Shown: piece by piece, positions 3-55,082 of the stretch
Layout of the letters: the number at the start of each line of letters is the position of its first letter
How positions within the stretch are numbered: the stretch's first letter is position 1
Source: Alphaproteobacteria bacterium
GTDB taxonomy: Bacteria > Pseudomonadota > Alphaproteobacteria > Bin95
Length of the DNA stretch: 64,000 nucleotides
Reading direction: 5' to 3'
Assembly (NCBI GenBank): GCA_964291285.2
Contig: OZ219786.1
Location: forward strand, 480,001-544,000
Translations under genes and position numbers: made by a program
The notes under the pieces: model-generated
The model's database searches: none
What the model saw: only the letters and a program-made list of their open reading frames with translations
Told to the model about the DNA's origin: nothing

Positions 3-3000
3 CGACAACTCTCCCAAAACGCCAACCGGGCCGAAGCCTTCGCACTCGCCGCCGACATGGAGGCGGTCGAGGCCGAATGGGCCGGGATCGCCGCGCAACC
101 TTCCCCGGCACCCGACATCCTGCCGCGCGTCCAGGACACCCTCCAGCGCCACAAGCAGGTCCTGCACCGCGTCCGCGTCTTCCTGCGCAGCCCGGCCCCC
201 TCACACTCCCAGGAACAACATCACAAGCGCGTCTCCCGCTCCGGGCTCGAGGGATTCGCCAGACTGCGGCGCAACATGCGCAACCGCTGGCGCGAAAGCC
301 TCCGCGAAGGCGAAGCCGCCAAGGCGCGCCAGGCTGCGCTGCATGCCGACACCCGCAGGCTGTCCGGAGCCCTCCAGCGGGACTGGACCGACTTTCGCGC
401 CCGGGCCGGCCAGGACTTCCTCGCCCTTCTTTCGGACCCCGAGCACGCGGGCCTCGTTCGCCGGACCGCGGAGCTCGCCGGCAGCCGCACGACCGACCGC
501 CAGACCGCCCGCGACGCCGAATATTTCCTGCAGGGACATCTTGCTTCCTTCTCCGCCCCGCTCCGCCAGTCCTGGCACGACCTCCAGCCCGCCGATCCCG
601 ACAAGGCCTGGACTCCGAAGGACGTGGCCGCCTACCGAACGGTCCTCGGACAGTCCCATGCCCTTCTCTCCGCCATGGCCGCGGTCCCGGCGCTCCGCAT
701 CAACCGCGAAATGCTCCGCCAGCGCCTTCTCGGCGCTCCCACCTACCGCGAGGCGCTCCGCAGCCTCGTGCAGGCCCTGGACAGCGAGGAGGACCTTGTC
801 CAGCGACGGGAAGCCCGCATGCCGGGCTCTTCCCTGCACACCCGCCGCCTCGCAGCCCACATCGCCTCCCTCGACGCCGCCAGGCGCCTCCCCGGCCTCC
901 GCGAAGAGGCGCGCAAGGAAATCGGGCGCATCATCCGCGACCACAGGCGCGCCCGCCGCGACGCCGGCGTCACCCGGAACGACGGGCCCTGGCCGACAGA
1001 CGAGCAGATCGCGAAGCGCCTCGCCGCCAACGAGCAGCTCCGCCCCGCCTGGCAGGCCCTTCGCGAAGCGACCCGCAACGACCGGCTCTCCGCCCTCGAA
1101 CGCCCCGAACACCCTCAACTGGTGCGGCTCACCGCCCGGCACGCTGCCGATCCCTCCCTCGACCCCGACACGGCCCGCATCATCCGCACCTACCTGGTCC
1201 GCCACCTGCAGCGGATCGACAAGGCGCTCGACGAGGCCGCCGGGGCCATCGTCCCGGGCCTCAGCCAACCCCGATGGACGCCGGCGGAATTCATCCAGTA
1301 CCGGCGTCTCCGGACTCGCGCGCGCACCCTATCGCGCGAGCTGGCCGCCCTTCCTTCGGAGCTCCCCCTTCAGGGCCTTGTCCGGGACAAGTGGGCCCGG
1401 TGGCTCGCCAGCACGCCCAGAACGACAAGGGCGCTCGACATGCTGGTCCACTCGCTGCGAGCCGAAGACGCCGCGATCGTCGCCCGCGAGACCCTGCTGC
1501 CCCGCTCCACCCTTCCCACCGGGCGCCTTGCGCGTCACATGGCCTCACTGGCCGCTGCCACCCGCCTTGACGGCCTCGCCCACGACATTCGCCAGGAGCT
1601 TCAGGACCTCCGGCGCCTCCACGTAGACGCCCGCCAGGCCGCCGGCGTCTCCCGGGACAATGCCGCCTGGCCCTCCGACGCCGCCGCCAGACGCGAAGCC
1701 GAAGGCCGCGCCCTCAATCGGTCATGGAAGGAGTTCCGGGCCGCCACCCGCTCCAGCTACCTCGCTCCTCTCGACCATCCGGACCATGGCAGCCTCATTT
1801 CCCGGACCGCCACCTTCGCCGTAACGCCCGGCCTGGCCCCGAGACAGGCGGCAGCCTGGCGCCACCATCTGGAGCGCCACCTTCGGGAGCTTGACGACGA
1901 GCTCGACCATGCACGCTATGCGGCCACCTCCGGCGCCGGCCGGTCCGGACTCTCCTTCCACGACTTCGACACACGCATCCGCCTGCCCGGCCGCATGAAG
2001 GCCTTCGCCGGCATCCTCGCAGGCCTGCCTGCCGGCATCGACCGGCCTCCCTTCGACCTCCAGGCCGCCCGCCGTTCCCTTGCCTCCGCTCCCTCGCGTT
2101 CACAGTTCTACCAATCCTTCGTCGACCGGCTCGTCGCAGAAGAGCGCCTCCTCACCCGGAGAGAGGCGCAGATTCCGGGCTCGACCCTCGCCACGCGGCG
2201 CCTCGCCAGCCACATGGCCCTCCTCGAGACGCTGGCCGCGCACGATCTGGTCCCCGAGGGAGACCGCAACGCCCTGCAGCAGCTCCTCGACCAGCACCGG
2301 GAAGCGCGAACCGCCGCCGGCGTTTCCGATACAAACCTGCCTTGGGTCGACTCCCCCGAACGCCAGGCCGCTCTCGATTGCTTGCGCATGGTCAACGCCT
2401 GCAAGGCAGCCCTCGATGCCGCCGACGGAGGAGCTCTCATCTACCAGCCCGGCATCGAGCCTCTGCGCCCCGAGATCGGCCACCTTCTGGAAACCGGCCT
2501 CCTTTCGGCCGGCGACAGGTCCTTCCTCGAGAAACTGCAGCGGCGGCTCGACGGCGAAATCCGGCAGCGCGCCGATATTCTCCATACCATCGACCGTGCC
2601 CGGGCCCATCTGGAAGAATACCCGCCCATTCTAGAGCGCGCCCTCGCCCCGAAGCCACCGCAGCCCGCTCCGGACAAGCCGCCCTCCCCTCCGGGCCTCG
2701 TCGGCCGCGTTCGCCGGCTTCTCGGGGCGGAAGACGGCATTCCCGCCCGCCCCGCCGACCCGGCACCGGCGCCACAGGCCCTCAACGACATCGACCTCGC
2801 ATACCGCCGGTGGGACCTCACGGCCGAACAGATCCTCAAGGCCTTCCAGAGCTGGTCGAACAACGATAGCAAGCTCTACCTCGACCACGTCGACCGGCGG
2901 CGCATCGACATCTCCGACGTCACGGCCGAACTCGAAGCCATCCGGAGCGCGGCCCGCGAGCCCGGGGCACCGCCGTACCAGGTCGAAGTCCCCAACGCCG

Positions 3001-3338
3001 GGCGCTGCGGCATCGAAGATCAGCGCCATGACCCGGAGCGCCTCCATGCCGTCCTTCGCCGCGTCCTGGACCCCGACAGAAGGCCCGACCCGAAAGCGCT
3101 GCTCGAACTCGCCCGAAGAAACCGCGCCTGGCCCAAGGAGACCCTCACCGTCTTCCGCGCCTGCCTGGACCAGGCCGCCGATACCGACGAGACCCTCTTG
3201 CACACGCGCCTCGCGGCCTCCCTGCCGGCCAACCTTGCCGACAGCTTCCGCAATCTCTCCGCGGAAACCTGGCGCCGGCACGCCGAAGTCCGGTTACGCC
3301 ACCGCACCCTCACCCGGGACCAGGGCCTCTCGCTCTGA
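3..3338 (+). CDS. Large helical repeat protein, 5' end outside window; possibly the C-terminal part of a relaxase or a T4SS-translocated protein
   Basis: Frame open from position 3 to stop at 3338. Three ~222-aa internal repeats (W..FR.....L.L..P.H..L...TA ... RE...P.S.L.T.RLA.H.A.L ... AGV......W). C-terminal ~300 aa paralogous to 4973..9727. Ends in basic tail RHRTLTRDQGLSL resembling relaxase/mob tails. Confidence 0.7.
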   Translation, partial: RQLSQNANRAEAFALAADMEAVEAEWAGIAAQPSPAPDILPRVQDTLQRHKQVLHRVRVFLRSPAPSHSQEQHHKRVSRSGLEGFARLRRNMRNRWRESLREGEAAKARQAALHADTRRLSGALQRDWTDFRARAGQDFLALLSDPEHAGLVRRTAELAGSRTTDRQTARDAEYFLQGHLASFSAPLRQSWHDLQPADPDKAWTPKDVAAYRTVLGQSHALLSAMAAVPALRINREMLRQRLLGAPTYREALRSLVQALDSEEDLVQRREARMPGSSLHTRRLAAHIASLDAARRLPGLREEARKEIGRIIRDHRRARRDAGVTRNDGPWPTDEQIAKRLAANEQLRPAWQALREATRNDRLSALERPEHPQLVRLTARHAADPSLDPDTARIIRTYLVRHLQRIDKALDEAAGAIVPGLSQPRWTPAEFIQYRRLRTRARTLSRELAALPSELPLQGLVRDKWARWLASTPRTTRALDMLVHSLRAEDAAIVARETLLPRSTLPTGRLARHMASLAAATRLDGLAHDIRQELQDLRRLHVDARQAAGVSRDNAAWPSDAAARREAEGRALNRSWKEFRAATRSSYLAPLDHPDHGSLISRTATFAVTPGLAPRQAAAWRHHLERHLRELDDELDHARYAATSGAGRSGLSFHDFDTRIRLPGRMKAFAGILAGLPAGIDRPPFDLQAARRSLASAPSRSQFYQSFVDRLVAEERLLTRREAQIPGSTLATRRLASHMALLETLAAHDLVPEGDRNALQQLLDQHREARTAAGVSDTNLPWVDSPERQAALDCLRMVNACKAALDAADGGALIYQPGIEPLRPEIGHLLETGLLSAGDRSFLEKLQRRLDGEIRQRADILHTIDRARAHLEEYPPILERALAPKPPQPAPDKPPSPPGLVGRVRRLLGAEDGIPARPADPAPAPQALNDIDLAYRRWDLTAEQILKAFQSWSNNDSKLYLDHVDRRRIDISDVTAELEAIRSAAREPGAPPYQVEVPNAGRCGIEDQRHDPERLHAVLRRVLDPDRRPDPKALLELARRNRAWPKETLTVFRACLDQAADTDETLLHTRLAASLPANLADSFRNLSAETWRRHAEVRLRHRTLTRDQGLSL

Positions 3339-3423
3339 CGGGAAGCCCCTCGCCGGTCTCGCGACCGCTTCTTCAACCTCGCCTCCCAAGGCCCCGAAAA
3401 AGGCTCCGGACCTCGACCAGGAC

Positions 3424-3993
3424 ATGGAACGGTGGCTGCAAATCGCGTTTGTGTGCCAGGCGGCAGGTGTTTCTCTGGCCATGGAGCCCGGCGACTGGGA
3501 CAACGCTCGGCCAGAGGCAATGACCCTGCTTTCGATATTGGCTGCCGCTGTGCTTTTCCGTCTGGGACGCGGCGTTCCAACCATGTCGGTCGACGGCCTT
3601 TCCGTGAAGGAGGCCAGGGATCTGGCGTACGCCCATGAGAAAGTGGCGCATCGGCTGGCTGTCGTGGCGGGGATGACAGCTGCCGGGCTCGTCGGTCTTG
3701 CTGTGATCGGCGTCGCCCACCGCCTTGTCCGCCTTCATCTGCCCGCCGATATCGTGGAATTCTGCAGCAGATCGTTGACGGCACTGCTGGCCGTGGTTCT
3801 TGCGTTGACGTTCTGTCGAGCGGTCGTACTTGTTCGCGGCGACCTGTCATCCGTCCGGGTTCAGGGCAGGAGCATGGTAGCAAGCGTCCGACGGCGTCAC
3901 GTCGATGAAGCGGCCATTGCCATACGGAAAGCCGAAGAGTCCCGACCATTCGAAGCGCCATCCAACCATGGCGAACTCATTGACGAGCGCTGA
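3424..3993 (+). CDS. Hypothetical membrane protein (3-4 TM segments)
   Basis: ATG 3424 within ORF 3028..3993; several hydrophobic stretches; visibly lower GC than flanks. Confidence 0.6.
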   Translation: MERWLQIAFVCQAAGVSLAMEPGDWDNARPEAMTLLSILAAAVLFRLGRGVPTMSVDGLSVKEARDLAYAHEKVAHRLAVVAGMTAAGLVGLAVIGVAHRLVRLHLPADIVEFCSRSLTALLAVVLALTFCRAVVLVRGDLSSVRVQGRSMVASVRRRHVDEAAIAIRKAEESRPFEAPSNHGELIDER

Positions 3994-4029
3994 GTTCAAC
4001 AAGGAGCTCACCAGGGGACACGGCTACGG

Positions 4030-4185
4030 GCTGTCTCATTGATACGGAACGCCCTGTCCGCAAGGGGATCGATCAGCGGACGCGACCGCCCGCATCGCGA
4101 GGCCCCGCAAAACCGGGACGATGCTGTCTCATATGGATGGTCCGGAAAGAATTGCGGTGATGGGGCGCTTTGCGTACAGTCCGGA
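4030..4185. promoter_or_regulatory. Probable res site/promoter region of the serine resolvase
   Basis: GCTGTCTCAT occurs at 4030-4039 and 4123-4132 directly upstream of the resolvase gene, the usual position of res sites. Confidence 0.35.
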
Positions 4186-4189
4186 GACC

Positions 4190-4768
4190 ATGACCGGACT
4201 CCTCATCGGCTACGCCCGCTGCTCGACCGATGGACAGGACCTGGAGGCCCAGCGCCTGGCCCTGAGCGGTCTCGGCGTCGGGGACGACCGCATCTACACC
4301 GACCGCGGCCTCACCGGGACCGCGCGCGACCGCCCGGGCCTGGACCGCGCCCTCGCCGCCGTGCGCCAGGGCGACACCCTCGTCGTCGCCAAGCTCGACC
4401 GCCTCGCCCGGTCCGTCCCCGACGCCCGCTCCATCGCCGACGCGCTCCGCGCCAAGGGCGTGAAGCTCGCCATCGGGAATACCGTCCACGACCCGGACGA
4501 CCCCATGGGCAGGATGTTCTTCAACATCCTCGCCACCTTCGCCGAGTTCGAGGCCGACCTCATCCGGATGAGAACCCGCGAAGGCATGGCCGTCGCCCGC
4601 GCCAAGGGGAAACTGCGCGGCAAACAGCCCAAGCTGACGCCGAAACAGCAACGCGAACTGCGCCGCATGCGCGATACCGGCGAATACTCCGTCAGCGACC
4701 TCGCCGAACTCTTCAGCGTCTCGAGGCCGACCGTGTACCGCACACTGCAAAGAACCAGGGCTGCTTAG
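4190..4768 (+). CDS. Serine recombinase (resolvase/invertase family) with C-terminal HTH
   Basis: IGYARCST catalytic Ser motif, RPGL, DTLVVAKLDRLARS, AEFEADLIRMRTREG, C-terminal HTH (SVSDLAELFSVSRPTVYR). Confidence 0.95.
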   Translation: MTGLLIGYARCSTDGQDLEAQRLALSGLGVGDDRIYTDRGLTGTARDRPGLDRALAAVRQGDTLVVAKLDRLARSVPDARSIADALRAKGVKLAIGNTVHDPDDPMGRMFFNILATFAEFEADLIRMRTREGMAVARAKGKLRGKQPKLTPKQQRELRRMRDTGEYSVSDLAELFSVSRPTVYRTLQRTRAA

Positions 4769-4803
4769 CGCAGGATTTCGCCCCCTACTACCAATGACCC
4801 CCT
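4768..4803 (+). repeat. 36-bp direct repeat, copy 1 (partner at 10154-10189)
   Basis: GCGCAGGATTTCGCCCCCTACTACCAATGACCCCCT vs GCGCAGGATTTTGCCCCCTGCTACCAATGACCCCCT; 2 mismatches in 36. Confidence 0.9.
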
Positions 4804-4902
4804 CCTGCCACTCCGCGCATGGCGGCACTCCTTGCCCCCATGGGTAGGCAGGTCATTGTCCATGAGCCTCCTGCCACTCCGCGCATGGCGGCACTCCTTG
4901 CC
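4801..4902 (+). repeat. Two exact 36-bp direct repeats at 66-bp period
   Basis: CCTCCTGCCACTCCGCGCATGGCGGCACTCCTTGCC at 4801-4836 and 4867-4902. Confidence 0.9.
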
Positions 4903-4972
4903 ATATGGCAAAATCCAGCCATGCGCCGGCATCCGGCAACCCGGCCAGTGACCGAACACAGGGACGCTTGAA

Positions 4973-7900
4973 ATGTCCGATATCGAAGGCCCCGCAAGCC
5001 CCGCCACCGGCACCGCCGGGATCATGGACCACATGACCGCCGACGCGCGTCCCTCTTCGCGAGAACCCGACACGCGCGCCCCCGGCGACATCGAATCCGG
5101 CCGCATGGGCGTCGACCTTCTCTTCGAAGCCATCGGGGCGGGCCTCTGTCCGGACGACTCCATCCTCGCTCCCGACCGGGACCGCCTCCTGTGGAACGCC
5201 GTCGAGCAGCTGCGCAGCCATGTCGGACGCCTCGACTCCAGGCTTGAGCACCGCCTTCGCGAACCCACCCCCGAACAGCGCGAAGAGCGCGCCCGCGACA
5301 ACGAAAGCAACGCCGGCGACACCGACTTCCTCCTGGCCGACCAGGCGGAGGCCACGCAGGCCCAGCTTCGCATCCTCCGCGACACGCTCGACCATGCCAT
5401 GCAGCGCTATGGCGAAGCCGTCGGCCAGCCCTGGATCGCACGCCATGGCACCGCAGATCCCGGACCCTCCGCATACGGACTCGGCGTCCAGATCGACGCC
5501 TCGACCTTCTTCGCAGCGCGCGAACTATGGCAGCCCAGTCCGGACACACTCACCCGCGTCCGCGAAGCCATGGAGGATGCCGACCTCAAGCGCGCCGCCG
5601 TTCTCGCGGCCGCCCAGAACAGGGATGCCCCCACCCGTCTCCAGGACCTTCCCTTCCCCTACAACGTCGGCGAACGCGAGCCCACCGCCGCCGCCGTCAC
5701 CGGCATGTTCCAGGCGCTCTCGCTGATCTATCCCGGCGGCACACAGCTCCAGGACGAGCGCGACGCCGGGTGCTGGCGCCTGGTGCGCATGTTAGACGCC
5801 GGCGCCGCCCGCGCCACCGAGGACGCGCTACGGCGCATGACCGACCATCCGGCCCTCACTCCCACGCCCGATCCGGGCGCCGCCGCGTCCTTCGACGACG
5901 GCACCCGCTCCTCCATGCTTCGCGTCCAGATGCTCTCGCGCGCCGCCGACGCCGCCGGCGCCGTCTACCAGGAGATCACGGGCGACGAGTGGGACCGGCG
6001 CGACCCCGCCATGACTGCTGCAGGCGGCCCTCGCATCCGCACATCGCTCACAAGCCGGCACTACGCCGCGGCCCAGCGCGTCGCCGCTCTCGGACACCCC
6101 ACCCCGCATCAGCTCGACGGTCCGCACATCGTGATCGTCGGCAGCGCCGACCTTGACATGGAGCGCAACCGGCGCGCCGTCGAAACCCAGCTGGAACGCC
6201 TTCACGACCGCGTGCCGGAAATGGTGCTCCATTACGGCGCCCGGCTGCGAGACCGGGGCGGAGTCGATCGCCAACAGGGAATCGACGCCATCGTCCACCG
6301 ATGGGCCAGCGGCCGAGGCGTTCCGCTCATCCCCAATCCTCCCCTCTGGGATGCAGCGAACAACCGCTTCGACCTTCACGGCCGCGACGACGCATGGATC
6401 CACATGAACCCCGACCTGGTCGTCGACTTCGGCGGCTCCGGGAACGCACACCGGCGCTTCCTCTCTCTCGTGAACCGGAACCGCATCGAGCTGCGCACGG
6501 CGCGCACGCGTTCCCAGGCCCGGAACCGCGAAGACATTTCCCGCACGGCATCCGAGACCCCTCAACCCTCCACCTCATCCCACGCCCTGCGCTGGGCCGG
6601 CATCGGGGCACGCAAGACCCCCGCGCCTGTGCTCGCCGACATGACAGAACTCGCCCGTCGCATGTCGGATGCCGGCTTCCACCTCTCCTCCGGAGGCGCC
6701 CGCGGCGCGGACACCGCCTTCGCAGCCGGCGTTCCCGCCGACCGGCGCTCCATCTGGCTTCCGTGGGCCGGCTACAACGACCTTCGCGGACCGGACTGCC
6801 AAACCCTTCCGCCCGAGCGCCTGCAGGACTGCATGGACGTCGCCGGGCGCCTGCACCCGAACTGGGACAACTGCTCGCCGGCGGTCCGCGCCCTGCACGC
6901 ACGCAATGTCGCGATCCTGCTCGGCCCCGATCTCGACAATCCCGTCGACGCCGTCGTCTGCTGGACCGAAGGCGGCCGCCGCCGCGGAGGAACCGGCCTC
7001 GGCATTCGCATCGCCCAGGACCGGAACATACCCGTCATCAATCTCGCTACCGTCTCCGCGCGGCAAGCCTGGGACACACTCCAGCGTCTTCGACAGACAC
7101 CCGACCAGTCGCACGAGGCCGCCACCGCCGCCCGCGACCGCGCCGACCCCGAACAGCGGCGCGCCCTTCGCCGCGACCGCGCGGTCACACGGCTCCACAA
7201 AATGCTCCGCGACCACGACATCGGAAACCTTCCCCGCTTCGCCCTCGCCCAGCTCCGCGAGGAAAACGCGCGCGCCGAGGCCCATGAGCGCCTCGACACC
7301 ATGTCCCGCGACGAGCTCCTCGACGCCCTCGACAACATCGAGGACCAGACACGCCAGCTCCGCGACCGAGCCACTCCCGACGGCCCCACGACGCCCGAGA
7401 CCATCGAGCGCGACAAGCGCCTCGCCGCACTCGAAGCCGCCGGCGACCGCATCCATGCCGTGCTCGCCGACAAGAACCTCTCAGCGCTTCGCGAGCAGGA
7501 AAGTCCCGATACCCGGCTCTCCTCCGATGAACGTCAGGAAAAAGCCACTACCCAGCGCCGCGTTCTTTCCATCATGGTATCCGCCTGGCGTCTTGCCGAG
7601 GAAGGCCCGCTCGCTGCCCAGTCCAACCGTATCGTCAAGGCCGCCGCGCAGGTTTTCGCCAGCCGGCAAACGTATCTCAACGGCAGGCTCGCCGACGAAA
7701 CCCGCATCCGCTCCGGACTCGGCCTCGCCCATACGCCCGGCTCCGAGGAAGAAACCCTCGCCCTCGCCAGCCGCGGAACCGGCCAGAACCCCGGCAAGGA
7801 CGCCGAGCCCTTCGAGCACATGCTCACCGACGCCGAAATCAGGCAGAAGGACGAGGAATACCACGCGCTGGCCATGCGCAGCCACCGCCTGGACCTCATG

Positions 7901-16103: not shown

Positions 16104-18377
16104 CTACGGCCCGTCGTCCGCGGGCGCGCCGCGCCCGCCCGGCAGGCCGGGGCTGCGCCTTCCCTGGCCGACGCGCATCGGCCCGATCCGCCCGAACGCG
16201 CCGGCGATCCCGCCGCCGATCCGGTCGGCGTCGCCGTCGCGCCCGTCGCGCCCGCCGATCCAGTCCATGGCGATCGCGGGCAGATGGTCGATCAGCTTGA
16301 AGCAGCCGTTCATGAGGCCGTAGACGGTCATCAGGTAGATGGCGAGCATGGCGAGCCAGCCGAGCACGCCGATCCCGTCCGAGGCGCCGGCGTCGAAGAC
16401 GAGGCCCCGGAAGATGTCGTTGAAGGTGTCCATGATGGTGACGAACAGGAGGTAGCCGGTGACGAGGCCGAACAGCATCAGCACCGGGCGCAGCAGCAGG
16501 CCGGGCAGGAAGAGCCATCCCTGGCGCGTCGCCGGGGTGACGAACCCCTCGCCGCGGACCGTGTGCCCGGCGAGCCAGACCGGCATGGCGAAGACGGCCG
16601 CGACGACGGCGGTCAGCCAGGCCAGCAGGCCGAACAGGAAGCGCAGGAACGGCAGCACGGGAACCAGGTAGGCGAGCACCAGGCCGGCGAGGATCATGAG
16701 GCCCAGGATGGTCGACACGAAGCTGTCCATGACCTGCCAGGCGGCCTCGAACGCATCCAGCCCGCCGCCGATGAGCGGTATCGAGTTCAGCAGGTTCGAG
16801 CCGGTGGCGACGCCGCCGAGGACCAGGATCGAGCCGATCCCCTTGGCGACCAGGCTGTGTCCGAGCGAGACGAGGTCGAGGACCGGGTTGCCGCTGTCGA
16901 CCAGTTGTATGTCCTCGATGTCGAGCCAGTCGAACCAGCCGCGCCCGATCCCGCCGACGCCGCCGGGCCCGGGCGCGGGATCGGCGCCGGCGCCGAGCAC
17001 GGCGGGATATTCGCGCGAGGCGGCGAGCTGCCCGGCCGCGGCCGCGACGGCCGCGCGCGCCTGGGGGACCCATTCCCCGAGGCGCGCGGACGGTCCGGCA
17101 ACCCCCGGAATGCTCCCGGCGCCCAGCTGGTATTCGCCGACATGGCGGGTGATGGTCATGAACAGCGAGGCGGCGAGCGTCCAGGGGGTGTTCCTCGCCT
17201 CGTCCGCGAGCGCCGCCCTGAGCGCGGTCGTGGCCTCGTCCCGGGTCGCATCGGCCGCGGCGCCGACGGTCGCCAGCCATGTCCCGAGCGGATCGGCCGC
17301 GACCAGCATCGCCTCGATATCCGGCAGCGGGCCGTCCCTGCGGGCGGTTCCGGGCGGGGCCGCGAACCAGAGCGCCACTTCGTCCGCAATCCCGCCCAGC
17401 GCCGGGCGGACGGCGTCGAAGGCATCGCCCTGCGCCGCGGCCATCCTGCCCCCGGGGGTGGCGCCGCCGTCGAGGCCGGCGATCCGCACGCTGCCGCACA
17501 TGCCCTTCGGCATGCCGCCGGCATTGCCGTCATAGCCGATGGTGCGGACCCCCCGGCCCCTGTAGGCCCGCCGCCTCTGTTGCAGCGCGGTGTGCCTCTG
17601 CGTCTCCCTCACCGCGACATAGGCCGCATCGCCTGCTTCCCGGGCCGCCAGGTTCGCGGTGCGCGCGCAGAGTTCCGCCAGGAAGACGCCGGCGATGGCG
17701 GCCCGGAGCGGGCGCCGGTGCGGCGCCGGCGCCACCATGTTGCCGTCGCCGAGCACGTCCTCGGAGAACCCGGCCCAGACGAGCTGCGCGATGTCGCCGC
17801 CGGTGCGCGCGAGCGAGAGCGCCAGGTGCTGGCCTCCCGACAGGCCCCCGGGGAGCGGCACCATGAGCAGGAACGCGGCGGCGATCCGGAGCGTCTCCTT
17901 TCCCGTGAACCCCCAGCGTCCCCGGCTGGCGGTGTCGACGGTCCCGGCGGCGGTCCACCAGACGAGCAGCACGCCGGCGAGCACCAGGAAGGCGCCGTTG
18001 TAGACCGTCAGCATCCCGGAGAGCGCGGTGTTGCTGCCGGTATCGAGATCGGCGAGGAAGGCGAGCAGCGCGCGGCCTGCCCGGTCCGGCTCGCCCGAGA
18101 GGTCCGGAACCGGCGCCGTCTGCGCCGCCGCCGGCGCGGTCCCGGCCGCCATCTCGATCGCCCCCAGGACGATCCATGCCAGTCCCGCCAGCGCCATGCC
18201 GGCGCCGAGCCAGCCGGGCAGCCCGCGGGGGCGTTGCCGTCTTCCACCGCCCGGAGGCCGCTCCAGGGCGCCGGCCGCGGCGCGCAGCACACGGGCGCCG
18301 TCGCCGAGAGCGCGGGCCGCCGGTCCCAGCAGGTCCGGCAGCAGGACATGGCGCAGGAGGGAGGGACGGCGCGCCAT
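16104..18377 (-). CDS. dotA: DotA/TraY family inner-membrane T4BSS protein
   Basis: GTVDTASRG..G; LRIAAAFLLMVPLPGG; C-terminal PFLRFLFGLLAWL...MPVWLAGH...QGWLFL..LLLRPVLMLFGL hallmark. Confidence 0.9.
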   Translation of the reverse strand: MARRPSLLRHVLLPDLLGPAARALGDGARVLRAAAGALERPPGGGRRQRPRGLPGWLGAGMALAGLAWIVLGAIEMAAGTAPAAAQTAPVPDLSGEPDRAGRALLAFLADLDTGSNTALSGMLTVYNGAFLVLAGVLLVWWTAAGTVDTASRGRWGFTGKETLRIAAAFLLMVPLPGGLSGGQHLALSLARTGGDIAQLVWAGFSEDVLGDGNMVAPAPHRRPLRAAIAGVFLAELCARTANLAAREAGDAAYVAVRETQRHTALQQRRRAYRGRGVRTIGYDGNAGGMPKGMCGSVRIAGLDGGATPGGRMAAAQGDAFDAVRPALGGIADEVALWFAAPPGTARRDGPLPDIEAMLVAADPLGTWLATVGAAADATRDEATTALRAALADEARNTPWTLAASLFMTITRHVGEYQLGAGSIPGVAGPSARLGEWVPQARAAVAAAAGQLAASREYPAVLGAGADPAPGPGGVGGIGRGWFDWLDIEDIQLVDSGNPVLDLVSLGHSLVAKGIGSILVLGGVATGSNLLNSIPLIGGGLDAFEAAWQVMDSFVSTILGLMILAGLVLAYLVPVLPFLRFLFGLLAWLTAVVAAVFAMPVWLAGHTVRGEGFVTPATRQGWLFLPGLLLRPVLMLFGLVTGYLLFVTIMDTFNDIFRGLVFDAGASDGIGVLGWLAMLAIYLMTVYGLMNGCFKLIDHLPAIAMDWIGGRDGRDGDADRIGGGIAGAFGRIGPMRVGQGRRSPGLPGGRGAPADDGP

Positions 18378-18383
18378 GGCCGG

Positions 18384-23861: not shown

Positions 23862-24391
23862 ATCGGCACCGCCTGCATGCCGAGCGTGTTCTGCAGCGCG
23901 CGCACGAGCCCGGCCATGTGCCAGCACATCACCCCGCCCAGCAGGTAGCAGCCCGCCTGCGTCAGCGTTGCCTGCCCGCGCCCGTCCACCGCATGCTTCA
24001 GCACGAAGCATCCCCTGAGGAACGCGAACAGCCCGATCCATGCCACGACCGCGAACGCCGCCTGCACCGCCGCGCCGAACCGCTGCCATTCTCCCGAAGC
24101 GGGCGGCATCCAGGCCATCGCCGACGCCGCCTCGCGGTCGGCCCCGAACACCGATTCCCCCGATGCCATCAGCACATCCGGCAACCGCACCAGAACCACC
24201 GCCAGCAGGAACACCAGCGCCGTTCCGGTCCCGGTCCCGGGCCAGTGCCCCCCGGCATGCCTGAGGACACGCAAACACCCGCCCATGAAGCAGAACGCGG
24301 CGAGCAGATAGCAGACGGCGCCCATCAGCATCCGGAGCGCGCCGTCCACGTCCTGCACCAGAGCCCGGAACGCCGCTTCGAGACCGTTCAT
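23858..24391 (-). CDS. icmC: IcmC/DotE (TraQ-like) membrane protein
   Basis: Four TM segments; WIGLFAFLRG...GQATL.QA..YLLGG.M...M...V.ALQNTLG pattern. Confidence 0.8.
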   Translation of the reverse strand: MNGLEAAFRALVQDVDGALRMLMGAVCYLLAAFCFMGGCLRVLRHAGGHWPGTGTGTALVFLLAVVLVRLPDVLMASGESVFGADREAASAMAWMPPASGEWQRFGAAVQAAFAVVAWIGLFAFLRGCFVLKHAVDGRGQATLTQAGCYLLGGVMCWHMAGLVRALQNTLGMQAVPI

Positions 24392-25650
24392 TGCCGCCCG
24401 CTCCGGCCGGGCGGTCCGGCGAACGCGCCCCGGCCGCCGTCGATCCGGGCGGCCGGACCGCCCCGCCGCGGGGACCCGGCCTCCCGCCCCGGGGCTTCGC
24501 CGTTCCGGCCCCGCTCCGGCGTCCCGGTTATGACCAGCACCAGCTCCGTATTCACCGGCACCCGAACCGTCGGCCCCTGCGGCAGTCCCTCGAGCAGCAC
24601 CTCCCCGGCGCGCCTGGCCGCCGCCGCCGCGCCGGCGTAAACCTGCTGGCGGTGCGTCGGCGCCCCGCTCTCCACCGTCACCGTCTCTCCGGAAGCGCCC
24701 CTGGTGACAAGGCGCGCCGTCTGCGCCGCCGCCTCGAGGAAGCCGCCCGCAAACGCCACCGCCGACGGCAGCAGCACCCGGTCGAACCAGTGCCGGTCGA
24801 CCTCGCCCGCAATGCCGTAGCACGCGCAGCCGGGGTCCACCGCCCAGCCTTCGATGTCCCGGCTCTCCCGGCCCACCGACAACCGGTCGATCCGGATCAC
24901 CAGCCGGTCCCGCACCCGCTCGAACGCCCCGGTCGCCACCGCCCCGTCCAGGGGCGGCTCCAGGACCTCCAGGACGACGGGTCCCGGAAAGTCGCTGTTC
25001 GCCTCGTACAGCGCCCTCGCATAGAGGCCCGCGCCCGGCTTCAGCCCGGCCAGGACGGGCGGCAGGGGCGCGCCCCGCCCCTCGAAACCCGGGTCCGCGC
25101 CGGACTCCGGTTCCGCCTCCGCCGGAGCGCGTTCACGGGCCACCCGGACCATCTTCGCCCGGGGCGCGGCGAGCACGTCCAGGAGCGCATCGAGGGGCGA
25201 GGCATCCCTGTCCCGGCTCCCGCCGCGCTCCGGCAGCCGCTCGCCCGGCCGCGCCGCCGGCGGGTCCCTTCGTGCCTGCGCCGGCGCCGGCCGCTCCGCA
25301 GGAGGCGTCTCCGCCGCCGGCCCGGGTTCCTTCGGCCCGGGCGCCGCCGGCATCACGGCCGGAGGCGGCCGGTCCGGGCGCGTCGGGCGGTCGAATGTCG
25401 GCGAGAAACTCTCTCCCCGTTCCATCGCCTCCTGCCTGCGCCCGGCATCGTCGCGCCCGATCGCCTCGCGAAAGGCATCCGTAACCGGCTTCTCCGGGTC
25501 GAAGACGACACCGCTGCCATCGCCCTCTGCCCATGCCGCAGACGCGAGCAGCAGCCAGGCCGCGAACCCCGGCGCCGCCCCGCGCCAGGCCCGGCGGCGC
25601 TCCCGCGCCGACGCCACCGGCGGCGTTCCGCCGCCCCTGTTCCCGCTCAG
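24388..25650 (-). CDS. dotG: DotG/IcmE/TraO (VirB10-like) core protein; start uncertain
   Basis: LYARALYEANSDFPGPVV, AVDP...GIAGEVDRHWFDR.LLP.A.AF..GF, GPTVRVPVNTEL; Pro-rich linker; no pentapeptide repeats. Confidence 0.85.
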   Translation of the reverse strand: MSGNRGGGTPPVASARERRRAWRGAAPGFAAWLLLASAAWAEGDGSGVVFDPEKPVTDAFREAIGRDDAGRRQEAMERGESFSPTFDRPTRPDRPPPAVMPAAPGPKEPGPAAETPPAERPAPAQARRDPPAARPGERLPERGGSRDRDASPLDALLDVLAAPRAKMVRVARERAPAEAEPESGADPGFEGRGAPLPPVLAGLKPGAGLYARALYEANSDFPGPVVLEVLEPPLDGAVATGAFERVRDRLVIRIDRLSVGRESRDIEGWAVDPGCACYGIAGEVDRHWFDRVLLPSAVAFAGGFLEAAAQTARLVTRGASGETVTVESGAPTHRQQVYAGAAAAARRAGEVLLEGLPQGPTVRVPVNTELVLVITGTPERGRNGEAPGREAGSPRRGGPAARIDGGRGAFAGPPGRSGRQ

Positions 25651-25976
25651 CTCTCCGCCTCCGGGTTCACGGCCCGCTTGAGCACCGGCGACGGCACGAA
25701 CCGCACCGCCTTCGACGGCGGCGCGGTTCTTCGCTCGCCCGTGCGCAGATCGCGGTATTCCCGCGCCCCGCTCTCGGCGACCACGAACGTCCCGAAGCCG
25801 CGCAGCACCACCCGGTCCCCGCCCGCAAGCCTCGCCGCGATCTCCTCGACCACGACCCCGACCGCCTTCGAAGCCTTCTCCCACGAGAGCCCCGCCTTCT
25901 CCCCGACCGCCTTCACGAGCTCCGTCCGGCCCGTCGCCGCCAGGGACCTCCTGCCTATCTCCGTGGTCCTCGCCAT
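25647..25976 (-). CDS. HU/IHF family DNA-binding protein
   Basis: ELVKAV.EKAGLS...A..AV..V.EEI...LA.GDRV.LRGFGTF.V....AR.YRD.RTGE.......AVRF.PS..LK..VN. Confidence 0.93.
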   Translation of the reverse strand: MARTTEIGRRSLAATGRTELVKAVGEKAGLSWEKASKAVGVVVEEIAARLAGGDRVVLRGFGTFVVAESGAREYRDLRTGERRTAPPSKAVRFVPSPVLKRAVNPEAES

Positions 25977-25977
25977 C

Positions 25978-26967: not shown

Positions 26968-27593
26968 GGTCCCGCCGCTCCCCTCCTGCCCAGCAGAAAA
27001 TCCGCGATCGCCAGCCCCGACAGCCGCTCCGGGCGCGGCGCCCGCACGACCAGGAGGCGCGCCGCCAGCTTCGCATCCGCCCGCGCGCCCTCGCCGGCGT
27101 AGAAGGTCAGCAGCAGCGGCACCTCGACCTCGTATCCGAGGCGCCCGCTTCCCGTCTTCCGCACCCGCATCACCACCGCCGCGCCCTGCGCCACGGCCGA
27201 CACCACCTGCCGCTGCTTGCGCAGGCGCTCCAGCACCAGGCTGTCCTCGAGCACCGCCCGGTAGCTCCCGAAACCGTCCCCGGTGAACCGGTCCCTCATC
27301 GCCTCGATGCGTCCTTCCCGGTCGTCGAAGCCGATATCGAGAGCCTGCGTCACCGTGGCGACGGTCCAGGCCAGCATCGCGTCGATCGCGATGTCCGCTT
27401 CGGAATCCTCCGCCGCCCAGACCGCCTCCGGCTCGCCGCGGCCATCCATCGCGAACGCCGCATGGGCCCTCTCCTGCCACTGCATCGCCGCCAGCAGTCC
27501 GCCGGCCGTCAGCGCCTGCGCGGCAACCGCCGCCAGGGTCAGGCCGGGCCATATCCCGTGCCTGCGCATCCCCCGAGCCGACGCCGGCCTCAT
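26964..27593 (-). CDS. dotI: DotI/IcmL/TraM (VirB8-like) protein, copy 2
   Basis: WTVATVTQALDIGFDD......MRDRFTGDGFGSYRAVLEDS; VVSAV.QG. Confidence 0.8.
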   Translation of the reverse strand: MRPASARGMRRHGIWPGLTLAAVAAQALTAGGLLAAMQWQERAHAAFAMDGRGEPEAVWAAEDSEADIAIDAMLAWTVATVTQALDIGFDDREGRIEAMRDRFTGDGFGSYRAVLEDSLVLERLRKQRQVVSAVAQGAAVVMRVRKTGSGRLGYEVEVPLLLTFYAGEGARADAKLAARLLVVRAPRPERLSGLAIADFLLGRRGAAGP

Positions 27594-28303
27594 CGCCGCA
27601 GTCCCTCCGCCCTCGAAAACCGGAACTGTTCGATCGCCAGGCCGGACAGCCGCTCGGTGCGCGCCATGCGCACCACGAGCGCCTCGGCAACCAGGTCCTC
27701 GACCACCCTCTCGTCCGCCCTGGCGTAGAAGGTCAGCGACATCGGGAACTTCACCTGGTAACCCACGGCGCCGTCCGCGAATGTCCGGACCCGCTCCAGG
27801 ACCGGCGCGCCCCGCGCCACGGCCGACACCACCTGGCCCAGCTCGCCGATCCGCTGGAACACCAGGCTGTCCTCCAGCACCCGCTGGTAGCTGTCGAACC
27901 CCTCGTCGGTGAAACGGTCCCGCACCCCCTCGATGCGCCCGCGATAGTCGTGGAAGCCCATGGTGAAGGCCTCGGTCACCGACCCCACCGTCCAGGTGAG
28001 CACCATGCCGATCTCCTCCTCGCCTTCGACCCCCGCCGCCGACACGATCGGCAGGGTGCGCCCCGACATGTCCGTGGCGACCGCGATGTAGACCGTGTCC
28101 CTGGACTCCATCCACGCCGCGAGCGCGCCGATCGTCAGCGTCTGGCCGACCACCGCGGCGACCGCCACCCGGCGCCAGGCGCGGTGCTGGGCAATGTGGT
28201 AAGCCTGCGACCCCGACACGGCCGCCATGACCTCGCTCAGCCGCGAGCTGCCCGACGCACGCTCGCGCACCGATCCCGGGTCCCGGCGCCAGGGCAGCCT
28301 CAT
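27590..28303 (-). CDS. dotI: DotI/IcmL/TraM (VirB8-like) protein, copy 1
   Basis: Single TM then WTVGSVTEAFTMGFHDYR......RDRFTDEGFDSYQRVLEDS...GLAIEQ. Confidence 0.88.
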   Translation of the reverse strand: MRLPWRRDPGSVRERASGSSRLSEVMAAVSGSQAYHIAQHRAWRRVAVAAVVGQTLTIGALAAWMESRDTVYIAVATDMSGRTLPIVSAAGVEGEEEIGMVLTWTVGSVTEAFTMGFHDYRGRIEGVRDRFTDEGFDSYQRVLEDSLVFQRIGELGQVVSAVARGAPVLERVRTFADGAVGYQVKFPMSLTFYARADERVVEDLVAEALVVRMARTERLSGLAIEQFRFSRAEGLRR

Positions 28304-29169
28304 CGCGTGGCGCCTCCGGACCGGAAGCCCGGTTCCGGACGCCCCGCATGAACCCGGATTGCGCCCGCGTCGTCCCGCCACGCAAGGAAGGGCACGACCT
28401 CCGCGCCGAATGCCCGCCAGAGCGCATGGTTCGCCTCCAGCCGGTCCGTCCCTTCCGCCGCCGCGGCAGCCGGGCCGGACCCGAACCATGCCAGCGCCGG
28501 GTTCCCGGCCGCCGCGATCCCCGCCGCCTGCGCGAGCGAGTCCTCTCCCAGCAGCCCCACCGGCACCGCATGCAGGCGGAACTCCCCGTCGAGCGCCCGG
28601 CTCCCCTGTTCAGCCGCCGCCTGCCTCGACCAGGGGCAGGCGGGATCGATGAACGCCACCACGTCCGGACCCCTCTCGCCCAGCGTGAACGCGGCCGCAT
28701 CGAGCGCCCGCTCGAACAGCGCCTGCCGTCCCCCCTCCGGAGCCGCAGACCGCGACGCCAGCGCATACCCGGCCGCCGCCGCCCGGACCGCGTCTTCCAC
28801 CGGCGAAGGCCCGGGCGCCGCCGCACCCGGGCGCGAGGCGCCGCCGACCGCCTCTGCGGCCGCTCCCGCCTTCGCCGCCGCCCGCAGCTGCCCGCCGGTC
28901 AGCTCCAGCCCGTCCGGGCCGTAAAGCAGGCCCGCTACCGCGTGACCGTCCGGCGCCGCATAGACCGGGAACACGCTTCCGTCCGGCCGGCGCACCAGCC
29001 AGCCTTCCAGCAGGCCGGACCGCCCGAGCGGCACGAGCGCCGCCCCGGACCGCTCCAGCGCCGCCAGCACGGCCGGAAGCCGCTCTTCGGAATGCCCGAG
29101 CCTCAGCCCGCCCACGATCAGCAGCACCAGGAGCGCCGAAAACACCGCCACGCGCACGACCGCCCTCAT
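28300..29169 (-). CDS. DsbG/DsbC-like thioredoxin-fold protein (TrbB-like), CxxS active site
   Basis: VYAAPDGHAVAGLLYGPDG.ELT DsbG-type N-domain; VVAFIDPACPWS; VPVGLLG..S; cis-Pro loop VVP. Confidence 0.8.
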   Translation of the reverse strand: MRAVVRVAVFSALLVLLIVGGLRLGHSEERLPAVLAALERSGAALVPLGRSGLLEGWLVRRPDGSVFPVYAAPDGHAVAGLLYGPDGLELTGGQLRAAAKAGAAAEAVGGASRPGAAAPGPSPVEDAVRAAAAGYALASRSAAPEGGRQALFERALDAAAFTLGERGPDVVAFIDPACPWSRQAAAEQGSRALDGEFRLHAVPVGLLGEDSLAQAAGIAAAGNPALAWFGSGPAAAAAEGTDRLEANHALWRAFGAEVVPFLAWRDDAGAIRVHAGRPEPGFRSGGATR

Positions 29170-29170
29170 C

Positions 29171-29449
29171 TCAGCCCCGCCCGTAGTCCAGGAACCGCCG
29201 CATGCGCCGGCGGTGCAGCGCCCGGCGCTTCCCCGCGAGAGCCGCGCGCATCGCGCGCAGCGCCGCCGGCGGCCGGTAGCCCCGCGCCTCCGCAGCCCTG
29301 AACGCCAGCCAGGCGAGCAGCACCGCGCCGCCCGTCCACCAGCCCGGCACGAACACCGCCGCGACCGCCAACGGCAGCAGGCGCGCGTCGAACGGCCCCA
29401 GCCGAACCGGGCGCATCGAATCCCGCCACGCCCAGCCCTCTCCCTCCAT
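29171..29449 (-). CDS. icmT: IcmT/TraK family protein
   Basis: WRDSMRPVRLGPFDAR...RGY....ALR..R..LAG..R. Confidence 0.88.
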   Translation of the reverse strand: MEGEGWAWRDSMRPVRLGPFDARLLPLAVAAVFVPGWWTGGAVLLAWLAFRAAEARGYRPPAALRAMRAALAGKRRALHRRRMRRFLDYGRG

Positions 29450-29461
29450 GAGCCCGCGCCC

Positions 29462-30610
29462 TCACGCGCCCGCCCGTTCGCCGGCGTCGCGCAGGTCTCC
29501 CGACGCCGCCAGCGCCCGGGCCAGGTCCCCGCGCCCGATCCGCCCGGCTTCATGGGCCCGCACCCCGGCCTCGCCGAGGCCCCCGCAGCGCTTCCGCACC
29601 TCCGCCTGGATCGCCATCGGCCAGTCGCCCCGGGGCAGCTGGAACAGGCGCTGCTTCAGCGCGCCGTCGAACCGCAGCCACTCCCGGATCGCGGTCCGCC
29701 CGCCCTGCGGGTTCGGGACCAGCATCTGCGTCGCGACAAGCGTGAGGCGCTGCATCAGCGCCACGGCCCGCTCGTCCCGCTCCGCCGGCGCAAACGCCGA
29801 CAGCAACCGGCGCATGGTCGCCGACACGCCCACCGTGTGCGTCGTCGAATACACCGCCATCCCCTGGTCCGAGGCGTTCAGCACCGCCTCGATCGTCTCC
29901 AGGTCGCGCGCCTCGCCCACCATCACCGCCGCCGGACGGCGCCTCACCGCAGAGCGCAGCGCCTCCGCGAACGTCTCCACATGCGTCGGAACCTCCGTCT
30001 GCTCGATCATCGCCAGGTCCGCCTCGATCCGGGACAGGTCGAACTCCACCGGGTTCTCGAACGTCAGCACCTTGCCCCGGCCGGTCTCCACCAGCCGGCG
30101 CATCGCCGCGGCCAGCAATGTCGACTTGCCGGACCCCGGAACCCCCGTGACCAGGCAAATCCCCTCGCCGAGCTGCAACGCCGCCGCGATCTCCTCCTCG
30201 ACCCCGAGCGCGTCCAGCTCCGGCGCCTCCTCCGGAAGCACCCTCAGCGCCACGCCCATCCCCCAGCGCCCGTCGAACTGCTTCGGCAGCATGTTCACCC
30301 TGAAACGCCGCCGGCGCCGGTCCGGCCCGACCGCCGTGTGGCTGCAGTCGATCGCCCCGCCGCCGCGAAGCTCCGTCTCGGCCCGCTCCCGGCTCACATG
30401 CAGACCGCCGGCAACACGCCCCATCGCCGGGCCGTCCAGCCGCGCCCGGGTCGCCCGGCGCAACTGCCCGTCCACCTCGATGAACGCCGGAAGGCCCGTC
30501 GAGAAGGCGATATCCGCCGCCCCCAGGTCCGCCGCCCACAACAGGAACTCGTCAAGCCGGTCGGTCGGAAACGACCGCTCCCCCGGCTCCCACATGCCGG
30601 GCCCGCTCAC
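29462..30610 (-). CDS. dotB: DotB/TraJ (PilT-like) secretion ATPase
   Basis: GICLVTGVPGSGKSTLLAA; LTFENPVEF; AVRRRPAAVMVGEARDLETI; YSTTHT; GGRTAIREWLRFD. Confidence 0.92.
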   Translation of the reverse strand: MSGPGMWEPGERSFPTDRLDEFLLWAADLGAADIAFSTGLPAFIEVDGQLRRATRARLDGPAMGRVAGGLHVSRERAETELRGGGAIDCSHTAVGPDRRRRRFRVNMLPKQFDGRWGMGVALRVLPEEAPELDALGVEEEIAAALQLGEGICLVTGVPGSGKSTLLAAAMRRLVETGRGKVLTFENPVEFDLSRIEADLAMIEQTEVPTHVETFAEALRSAVRRRPAAVMVGEARDLETIEAVLNASDQGMAVYSTTHTVGVSATMRRLLSAFAPAERDERAVALMQRLTLVATQMLVPNPQGGRTAIREWLRFDGALKQRLFQLPRGDWPMAIQAEVRKRCGGLGEAGVRAHEAGRIGRGDLARALAASGDLRDAGERAGA

Positions 30611-31047
30611 GGCCCCTCTCCCTTCGCCGGAACGCGCCGCCAGTGCGCCCGCACCAGGACCCGGCGCTCGGCCCCCATCCACTCCGGCTCGTCGCCGGGC
30701 CCGGCGTTCCGCAGCGAGTCCAGGCGGTTCAGCCAGGCCCGCGCGCCGGCCAGCACCACCAGGGCGACACGCCCGGAACGGTCACCGCCGCCAGGCTCCC
30801 GGTATTCGAGACGCCCCATCACCTGCAGCGCCGCGCCCTTCACCACCAGCCGGCGCGCAAGGTCGGCCTGCGCGCCGACCGCGCGCACATGGTGCCACTC
30901 GACACGCTCCTCATACTCCCCGCCGCGCCGGTAGCGCCGGAGGTTCGTCGCCAGCGAGAAGTCCGCGACCTCCGTCCCGCCGGCCTGCCGGACCTCCGCG
31001 TCCTTGCCCGCATGGCCCACAAGGTGCACGTCCGAAAGGTTCAGCAC
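30607..31047 (-). CDS. ssb: Single-stranded DNA-binding protein
   Basis: VHLVGHAGKDAEVR, FSLATN, EWHHV, KGAALQVMGRLEYR; AGGAGG SD before GTG 31047. Confidence 0.88.
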   Translation of the reverse strand: MLNLSDVHLVGHAGKDAEVRQAGGTEVADFSLATNLRRYRRGGEYEERVEWHHVRAVGAQADLARRLVVKGAALQVMGRLEYREPGGGDRSGRVALVVLAGARAWLNRLDSLRNAGPGDEPEWMGAERRVLVRAHWRRVPAKGEGP

Positions 31048-54995: not shown

Positions 54996-55082
54996 CAGGG
55001 CGAATTAATTGTCTGCCTTTGGGCCATGTTGAGGTGGGGTCCGGGGTGGCTATTTTTTTCTTGATATGGCAGTGTGCCGGTC

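Follow-up and report, generated by a model that had tools for sequence, protein, structure and literature searches.

A C-terminal domain common to a TrwC-type relaxase and a polyvalent protein is a candidate export signal beside a Dot/Icm-like conjugation system

We analyzed a 64,000-nucleotide stretch of an alphaproteobacterial genome (the window, G000:C2:480001-544000, where G000 is the window's own genome) in which two giant open reading frames (ORFs) lie beside the genes of a conjugation system. The first (3..3338, + strand) encodes the end of a TrwC-type relaxase-helicase, and the second (4973..9727, + strand) encodes a 1584-residue polyvalent protein. A sequence-only reading of the window had proposed that the two proteins share one C-terminal domain, and that this domain is an export tag for an adjacent type IV secretion system (T4SS), analogous to the BID domain (Pfam PF17841, Bep_C_terminal) plus basic tail. 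We compared the stop-free translations of the two ORFs by BLASTP and found that residues 812-1111 of the relaxase fragment (P0001) and 1322-1582 of the polyvalent protein (P0002) align in a single colinear high-scoring segment pair, with 108/300 identities (36%) and an E-value of 1e-47. The second-best segment pair reaches only E 0.2, so the N-terminal parts of the two giants are unrelated; both the common domain and the unrelated N-termini are thus as first described.

We refer to this region as the C-terminal domain (CTD), with CTD-A on the relaxase and CTD-B on the polyvalent protein. CTD-A comprises 300 residues (2436..3335, + strand) and starts with the motif LIYQPG at 2436, while CTD-B comprises ~275 residues (8936..9724, + strand) and starts with IIYQEG at 8936, the BLASTP alignment itself beginning at 8900. 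These starts agree with the earlier estimates of ~2439 and ~8936, and the motifs quoted at the time all fall within the alignment, which contains RARAHLEEY/RARDHLASY, YRRWD, H[VI]DRRR[IL]D, EDQR, RAWP and RLAASLP. In both genes the CTD reaches the final codon before the stop (3335 and 9724). A ~45-residue proline-rich insertion (~2640-2780) is present in the relaxase CTD and absent from the polyvalent CTD. The alignment is rich in invariant charged residues (H-x-D-R-R-[RW]-x-D, D-Q-R-x-D, P-E-D-E-R and A-R-x-x-R-A-W-P), and 52-55% of CTD residues are helix-favouring, compared with 46% genome-wide.

The relaxase ORF is clipped by the window edge. Its open frame spans G000:C2:476850-483338 and the gene G000:C2:477012-483338, giving a protein of 2108 residues, counted from the first plausible methionine, of which the window holds the C-terminal 1111. 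The first ~1000 residues, encoded upstream of the window, contain a histidine-rich TrwC-type relaxase motif and a helicase with the P-loop GAAGSGKS; this N-terminus was assigned by its sequence motifs, and Pfam support comes from orthologs. P0009 (2139 residues) matches TrwC (4.3e-59) and AAA_30 (5.6e-39), P0013 likewise matches both families, and P0016 matches AAA_30 and UvrD_C_2. The protein thus has the architecture of the TrwC/TraI (MOB_F) class, a TrwC domain followed by an AAA_30/UvrD-type helicase, and continues with three ~225-residue tandem repeats (369..2396, + strand, residues ~1120-1795 of 2108; E down to 6e-17 in a tiled BLASTP self-comparison) and then the CTD. We considered whether the CTD is a diverged copy of these repeats and rejected the idea: the whole CTD and its three segments, compared with the repeat alignment in hhalign, gave no significant match (Prob <=0.7%, best E 0.078), and tiled BLAST gave one marginal match, spanning the boundary (E 2e-4). 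Directly upstream of the relaxase gene, G000:C2:475756-476970 encodes a second TrwC stretch that is 46% identical to relaxase residues 10-417 and recurs in the other copies of the locus on contigs C3 and C5. The genome holds 17 TrwC-type relaxase ORFs.

The second giant gene sits between the relaxase gene and that of the type IV coupling protein (T4CP). Its product carries a YAcAr SLOG domain at residues 384-460 (Pfam YAcAr, 1.7e-12), a second YAcAr stretch nearer the C-terminus, and a DprA-like SLOG region at residues ~539-708 whose match is weak (DNA_processg_A, 0.022). The orthologs P0005, P0006 and P0008 also match YAcAr, and P0005 additionally matches NADAR. Polyvalent proteins of conjugative elements have been described as being transferred with the invading DNA (Iyer et al, 2017; PMC5512222), and we assign the protein to this class on its domain architecture as described there, with several unrelated effector-type domains in one chain. 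Directly 3' of the gene lies an ORF for an acidic protein of 113 residues (9724..10065, + strand; isoelectric point 4.3), whose ATG overlaps the polyvalent TGA (ATGA). This ORF occupies the same position in 8/8 related loci and in the C3 copy, at 50-65% identity. A Pfam scan of its product gave no match, and it could serve the polyvalent protein as a dedicated chaperone, adaptor or immunity protein. Between the two giant genes lies a serine recombinase of the resolvase type (4121..4768, + strand; Pfam Resolvase, 3.1e-41). In the related loci L012 and L013 the relaxase and polyvalent genes abut and the resolvase is absent, so we regard the resolvase as an insertion between the two genes.

The neighboring machine is Dot/Icm-like, as had been claimed, and its genes lie on the minus strand. 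They encode a VirD4/TraG-family T4CP of 678 residues (13646..15682; Pfam T4SS-DNA_transf, PF02534, 8.4e-44; TraG-D_C, 5e-16), a DotA/TraY family protein (16104..18383; TIGR04346, 5.9e-67, 226.7 bits against a cut-off of 100), a DotG/IcmE or TraO-like protein with a TrbI-like domain (24388..25977; DotG match below the equivalog cut-off), IcmL/DotI (27590..28609; PF11393, 1.8e-23, 83.4 bits against a cut-off of 27.7; NF038072, 1.8e-17) and a DotB/TraJ-type ATPase (29462..30781; TIGR02524, 1.4e-68, and TIGR02525, 2.8e-56, both below their equivalog cut-offs; Pfam T2SSE). Thin-pilus genes are also present, for PilS/bundlin-type pilins, a pilus ATPase (T2SSE), platform proteins (T2SSF) and a secretin-like protein. 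With DotA/TraY, IcmL/DotI, DotB/TraJ and DotG/TraO homologs alongside these thin-pilus genes, the system is of the I type (IncI/Dot-Icm-like). The cluster further encodes SSB, an SNase-type nuclease and a TcpQ-like protein. Adjoining the T4CP gene is one that is conserved in related loci (11566..12996, - strand). Its product begins with an integrase-type Arm DNA-binding domain (Pfam Arm-DNA-bind_3, 1.3e-10), continues with a long acidic stretch of low complexity and has a hydrophobic segment at the C-terminus; it may be an accessory factor of oriT or the relaxosome that is anchored in the membrane. The T4SS gene cluster also encodes a DsbG-like thiol:disulfide interchange domain (28300-29655, - strand).

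The CTD has no match in Pfam, NCBIfam or PDB sequences. When 27 CTD sequences were compared with Pfam at E<=10, no family was matched by more than 2 members. Literature searches turned up no account of the CTD or of a relaxase-shared export domain in I-type conjugation; the supplementary domain lists of PMC5512222 might name the region. A profile search of 1.84 billion cluster representatives (E <= 1e-3) showed that the domain is rare, matching 21 proteins. In 20 of these the domain closes the protein, with the match stopping within 4 residues of the C-terminus (2 of the 20 break off inside the domain), and the lone non-terminal case, P0012, continues for 36 unrelated residues. The CTD is likewise terminal at all 15 genome loci described below. 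Seven matches longer than 1000 residues could be assessed: P0009 and P0013 (on Pfam matches) and P0014 (on its N-terminal sequence) are TrwC relaxases, P0005, P0006 and P0008 are YAcAr proteins, and P0010 (1022 residues) has no Pfam match and a start resembling the relaxase repeat region. P0016 (864 residues) is a relaxase fragment, and the short matches look like fragments. We found the domain in three architectures, namely this relaxase, the polyvalent protein and a distant, solo relaxase. With only these three, two relaxase types and one polyvalent type, the proposal of varied N-termini and modular cargo is unsupported.

In a scan of one genome per species (185,579 species) we identified 15 CTD loci, all in metagenome-assembled genomes labelled Alphaproteobacteria bacterium except for one Candidatus Poribacteria bin. 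In that bin a solo CTD relaxase (L019) lies on a 32-kb contig, possibly through mis-binning or recent transfer. The CTD was present in 10/17 genomes of the window's genus (its own included), in 0/20 genomes of two sister genera and in 0/24 genomes of other families. Its ratio of nonsynonymous to synonymous substitution rates (dN/dS) lies at 0.26-0.37 in polyvalent-type copies and at 0.34-0.68 in copies of the relaxase types. The CTD is constrained but fast-evolving, which may explain why it goes undetected beyond one genus. One in-frame stop each interrupts a polyvalent-type CTD (L012:10001-10840) and a relaxase-type CTD fragment (L023:9848-10549); these are probably pseudogenes or assembly errors.

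Related loci keep the order relaxase with CTD, polyvalent protein with CTD and small ORF, followed by the T4CP and DotA genes where the locus extends that far. The solo relaxases (L017-L020) are of the TrwC/AAA_30 type and show 27-29% identity over ~600 residues to the window relaxase, while their CTDs show 52-53%. In L018, efflux and cyclase genes lie to one side of the solo relaxase gene, and to the other lie genes for BrxC/D, an SNF2 helicase, a tyrosine recombinase and a Band-7 protein; no T4SS gene lies within 10 kb, and the locus looks like a mobilisable island. In a tree of the CTD, the polyvalent CTDs form their own clade (support 100/100) and the solo-relaxase CTDs are nested inside the relaxase clade (100/96). 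All three architectures have LIYxPG as the N-terminal boundary of the CTD, and in each the domain and the tail that ends it have been inherited as a single unit.

Genome G000 holds three copies of the relaxase/polyvalent pair. Besides that of the window on contig C2, there is one on C5 at 99% identity and a divergent one on C3. The C3 and C2 relaxases are 99.6% identical over the first 1000 residues, 42% over the repeats and 41% over the CTD. The flanks of the C2 and C3 loci (the latter compared over G000:C3:1883277-1918494) are 97-98% identical at either side of a cassette, from ~94 to ~10187 of the window, whose proteins are 41-53% identical. The cassette contains the C-terminal half of the relaxase, the polyvalent gene and the small ORF; it begins at relaxase residue ~1027, which is the helicase end, and high similarity resumes at ~10187. 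Because the divergent interval is bounded by near-identical flanks, we conclude that the cassette was exchanged as a unit. A second I-type element in the genome encodes a relaxase of 1567 residues (C3:736-5439) whose last 600 residues match only themselves in the genome by tblastn, so this genome offers no second case of a shared relaxase C-terminus.

The presence of both CTD genes in one divergent cassette between near-identical flanks speaks for an explanation in which the CTD is a docking or oligomerisation domain. The polyvalent protein would then piggy-back on the relaxase, or both would bind a relaxosome accessory protein, in either case without T4CP contact. The CTD tree is also consistent with such docking, as a split into type I and type II is mirrored in the relaxase and polyvalent clades. 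Physical linkage of neighboring genes explains mirrored trees equally well, however, and the solo relaxases carry a CTD with no polyvalent partner nearby at 4/4 loci (L017-L020). T4SS substrates are, moreover, generally thought to be exported unfolded (PMC5826034), which makes export of a complex less likely. We judge the docking explanation very unlikely.

The 21 complete CTDs share a fixed-length end, …N-L-S-x-E-x-W…R-[RQ]-Q-x-L-x-R-G-x-G-[LM]-S-[YAM]. In the window relaxase the extreme C-terminal tail (…RLRHRTLTRDQGLSL) occupies 3288..3335 (+ strand). While building an alignment of BID proteins, we noticed that their ends (…RGLGLGR, …GPGMGL, …GYGIGM) resemble this motif. We next derived, from CTD tails alone, a position-specific scoring matrix (PSSM) anchored at the C-terminus, and applied it to the termini of 2,935 coding-like ORFs of G000. 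BID matches came from 2 of 401 genomes in the class and, in another order, from 5 of 301, and the six above-cut-off BID proteins belong to two protein families. With 8 positions, these six were equalled or beaten by 0, 3, 4, 6, 29 and 109 of the 2,935 decoys, and the single sub-cut-off BID match was beaten by 1,342. The top-scoring decoys were themselves TrwC relaxases and a second large YAcAr protein, as classified by Pfam.

We picked the relaxases of G000 independently, with a relaxase-domain hidden Markov model (HMM), and ranked those lacking a CTD with a 6-position PSSM. Nine of these 14 ORFs rank 1, 4, 6, 9, 10, 16, 19, 23 and 24 of 2,935. Among the remaining five, two are truncated (554 and 711 residues) and three end in GGGLSAG, GGGLSMG and DGGLSLL, the same motif one residue out of register. 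The large YAcAr protein (1033 residues) ranks 13th with 6 positions and 5th with 8, and twenty small YAcAr ORFs rank 442-931. These ~20 small ORFs (279-447 residues, with ends of the form …GIPVM[KR]…) coincide with a multicopy ~2.6-kb repeat of 84-95% identity, whose sites include C2:377652-380232, C3:114737-117317 and C4:234581-237193; they look like a SLOG gene riding a multicopy element. Most economically, the export signal would have two parts, a terminal motif that T4SS substrates of these bacteria have in common and, before it, a lineage-specific folded domain.

The same tails raise an alternative in which only the last ~8-15 residues would be the signal, and the ~250-residue CTD would act in the recipient on DNA, on a host factor or in strand establishment, a function needed by both proteins. 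The nine CTD-less relaxases with a similar terminal motif speak for it, as do the several invariant charged motifs of the CTD, and some BID domains are reported to have evolved secondary effector functions (PMC6509941). A recipient-acting domain need not be terminal, though, yet the CTD is terminal in 20/21 matches; the CTD and tail always travel as one block from the same LIYxPG boundary in three architectures; and the domain matches no enzyme or DNA-binding family. On this balance we consider that alternative unlikely.

We asked how closely the CTD follows the T4CP. Homologs of the window's T4CP form two clades, one close to it (~25 clusters, with identities of 72% or more) and the other large, at 44-55%. 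Within the genus (n=17), the five genomes with a T4CP at least 77% identical (G000, G411, G415, G416 and G420) all encode both the relaxase with CTD and the polyvalent protein with CTD, whereas G409, G417 and G419 have only a sister-clade T4CP (44-47%) and no CTD. This co-occurrence fits a putative cognate relationship. The claim that the CTD is linked to this T4CP type thus holds for 5/5 genomes with a close T4CP, but solo CTD relaxases occur without this clade. We also considered whether T4CP divergence tracks the type I/type II split and found no signal among the few sequences available, the T4CPs beside both types being 76-78% identical to the window's.

The interpretation that we put forward is that the CTD and tail act together as a bipartite signal for recruitment to the T4SS, comparable in function to BID plus tail, and we give it about an even chance. 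The module would consist of a ~250-residue lineage-specific domain and the terminal motif …R-[RQ]-Q-x-L-x-R-G-x-G-[LM]-S-x-COOH of an IncI/Dot-Icm-like element. A relaxase is an obligatory T4SS substrate. In the donor, the TrwC-type relaxase would nick oriT and remain covalently attached to the strand being transferred. Through its CTD and tail it would dock on the VirD4-family T4CP or an adaptor, and the relaxase-DNA complex would be exported. The polyvalent protein would have gained a copy of the relaxase CTD by an old duplication (terminal reassortment); the receptor that takes up the relaxase would then recruit it too, and it would be injected into the recipient. Its nucleotide-binding and -processing modules would presumably work there at an early stage, to protect the incoming DNA or to counter defence. 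Later, a relaxase-type CTD would have been captured by the distinct, solo TrwC relaxase of the genus. What we observe is the homology, the architectures, the C-terminal position, the modular exchange, the T4SS linkage and the likeness of the tail to those of other relaxases and BID proteins; the steps of the sequence, with T4CP binding, translocation and the role in the recipient among them, are all inferred.

A series of results weighs against this interpretation. The BID model matched neither giant protein at E<=0.1 and none of 27 CTD sequences at E<=10; its best score in the whole of G000 was 12.4 bits against a cut-off of 29.5, at a place away from the CTD, and hhalign comparison of the CTD with a 7-sequence BID alignment gave a Prob of 0.4%. 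The basic tail of the original proposal is not conserved: the two window proteins do end in Arg/His-rich stretches, with net charges of +4 and +3 over the last 30 residues, but the net charge of this segment ranges from -2 to +4 among 23 family members, and it is the fixed-length terminal motif that is conserved instead. The tail test was post hoc, having been devised after the resemblance was noticed, and BID tails were separated only by the C-terminus-anchored PSSM; when an unanchored tail HMM was run against 2,940 ORF termini together with those of the BID proteins, none of the latter ranked among the first 30. The relaxases are paralogs, and common ancestry could explain part of their tail resemblance. 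Because CTD-less relaxases bear the motif, the signal may lie in the tail alone and the CTD may have a different role; its invariant charged motifs would also fit a catalytic or nucleic-acid-binding site, and dN/dS values of 0.26-0.68 indicate only moderate constraint. As for the coupling protein, G410 and G413 have only a solo CTD relaxase and no close T4CP, and PF02534 proteins amount to two distant ones in G413, with none detected in G410 or G002. Co-occurrence of CTD and T4CP is in any case expected from physical linkage on one element.

The analogy with BID-type signals nevertheless holds better than the window alone could show, and the interpretation built on it is supported in part. In its favor, one carrier is a relaxase, the CTD is terminal, the T4CP is of the VirD4 family and the module has been grafted onto a second relaxase; the BID profile, as stated, is unmatched. 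BID plus a charged tail occurs in alphaproteobacterial TraA relaxases, in interbacterial toxins of the VbhT/PezT type and in Bartonella Beps (PMC5675462, PMC6509941), and like the CTD it is a C-terminal domain with a short tail shared by a relaxase and an adjacent accessory protein, arose by terminal reassortment from a relaxase, is encoded in the same element as a VirD4-family T4CP, and has similar terminal residues (G-[LMI]-[GS]-x-COOH). In contrast, BID measures ~100 residues per domain, compared with ~275-300 for the CTD, and its tail is positively charged, which that of the CTD is not consistently. BID systems are VirB-like and carry FIC or PezT toxins as cargo, whereas the CTD locus has a Dot/Icm/IncI-like apparatus with a TrwC-type relaxase and carries a SLOG/YAcAr polyvalent protein. 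The closest experimentally established parallel, by analogy, is VbhT, a FicT toxin fused to the BID signal of a TraA relaxase and translocated during conjugation (PMC5675462); the VbhT and TraA signals are near-identical, while the two CTD copies are old paralogs at 36% identity.

These likenesses also suggest that the CTD might be a very divergent BID pair, with BID1 followed by a terminal BID2 as in rhizobial TraA relaxases. The host is alphaproteobacterial, the tails are alike, and the length of the CTD approximates the distance from the start of the BID match to the C-terminus in six BID proteins (a ~90-residue match plus 170-196 residues after it). The profile and hhalign negatives given above count against a BID pair, however, and BID substrates are mostly linked to VirB/VirD4-like systems (PMC6509941), unlike the I-type apparatus and TrwC-type relaxase found here. 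We regard the BID-pair origin as doubtful.

Other known signals resemble the CTD in single respects. The XVIPCD of Xanthomonas X-Tfe effectors, which binds the VirD4 all-alpha domain and labels the substrates of a single T4SS, likewise joins a tail to a conserved C-terminal domain that has several invariant motifs (PMC8740702). It is described as having ~120 residues, an alpha-alpha-beta-beta-beta fold and a variable-length glutamine-rich tail, and as being carried by about a dozen antibacterial toxins (PMC8740702), whereas the CTD has 275-300 residues, a fixed-length tail and no Pfam match, and is found in three architectures in one genus. In size, tail and lack of a Pfam match the CTD thus falls outside the XVIPCD family, which is by analogy the closest parallel for a motif-rich C-terminal domain binding the VirD4 all-alpha domain. 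TSA/TSB of F/R1 TraI are, like the CTD, a large recognition domain in a TrwC/TraI-family relaxase-helicase that targets it to the T4SS (PMC3912908), but they are internal, in the helicase region, while the CTD is terminal and common to a non-relaxase. The available portion of PMC5512222 describes no relaxase-shared export domain for polyvalent proteins, whereas such a domain is visible here.

Among I-type systems, the Sog primase of IncI1 plasmids is transferred, being exported by the I-type system. Polyvalent proteins and Sog are delivered to the recipient with DNA, as we predict for the protein encoded by 4973..9727, and like it they are very large and multi-domain and are encoded beside transfer genes. 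No sharing of TSA/TSB with other proteins is known.

How conjugation systems choose their protein substrates is known for few models: BID, XVIPCD, TSA/TSB of TraI and arginine-rich tails. The locus described here provides a natural three-way comparison, in which one terminal module is attached to three proteins: a conjugative relaxase, a polyvalent protein of anti-defence type and a foreign solo relaxase. If the CTD and tail are an export tag, the use of a relaxase-derived signal on an interbacterial effector would extend from VirB-type to I-type systems, the injection of polyvalent proteins would gain direct support, and a simple terminal motif would be suggested for finding co-transferred proteins. 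In a broader and less probable version of this interpretation, the CTD would be a new coupling-protein- or adaptor-binding fold of I-type T4SSs, and G-x-G-[LMI]-[SG]-x-COOH would be a general T4SS export signature, common to TrwC relaxases, satellite effectors and BID-type substrates across Alphaproteobacteria; the last six to eight residues could then serve to detect conjugation-delivered effectors throughout a genome. The scope is narrow, with the CTD found in a single genus, though its domain swaps are unusually informative.

Two further observations concern mobile DNA around the locus. Genome G000 is rich in insertion sequences, with ~1.7-kb and ~2.0-kb elements each present in dozens of near-identical copies on all five contigs. 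Within the window, an ORF at 55065-56870 (+ strand) joins a DruA (Druantia) domain with DDE_Tnp_1-associated and DDE transposase domains.

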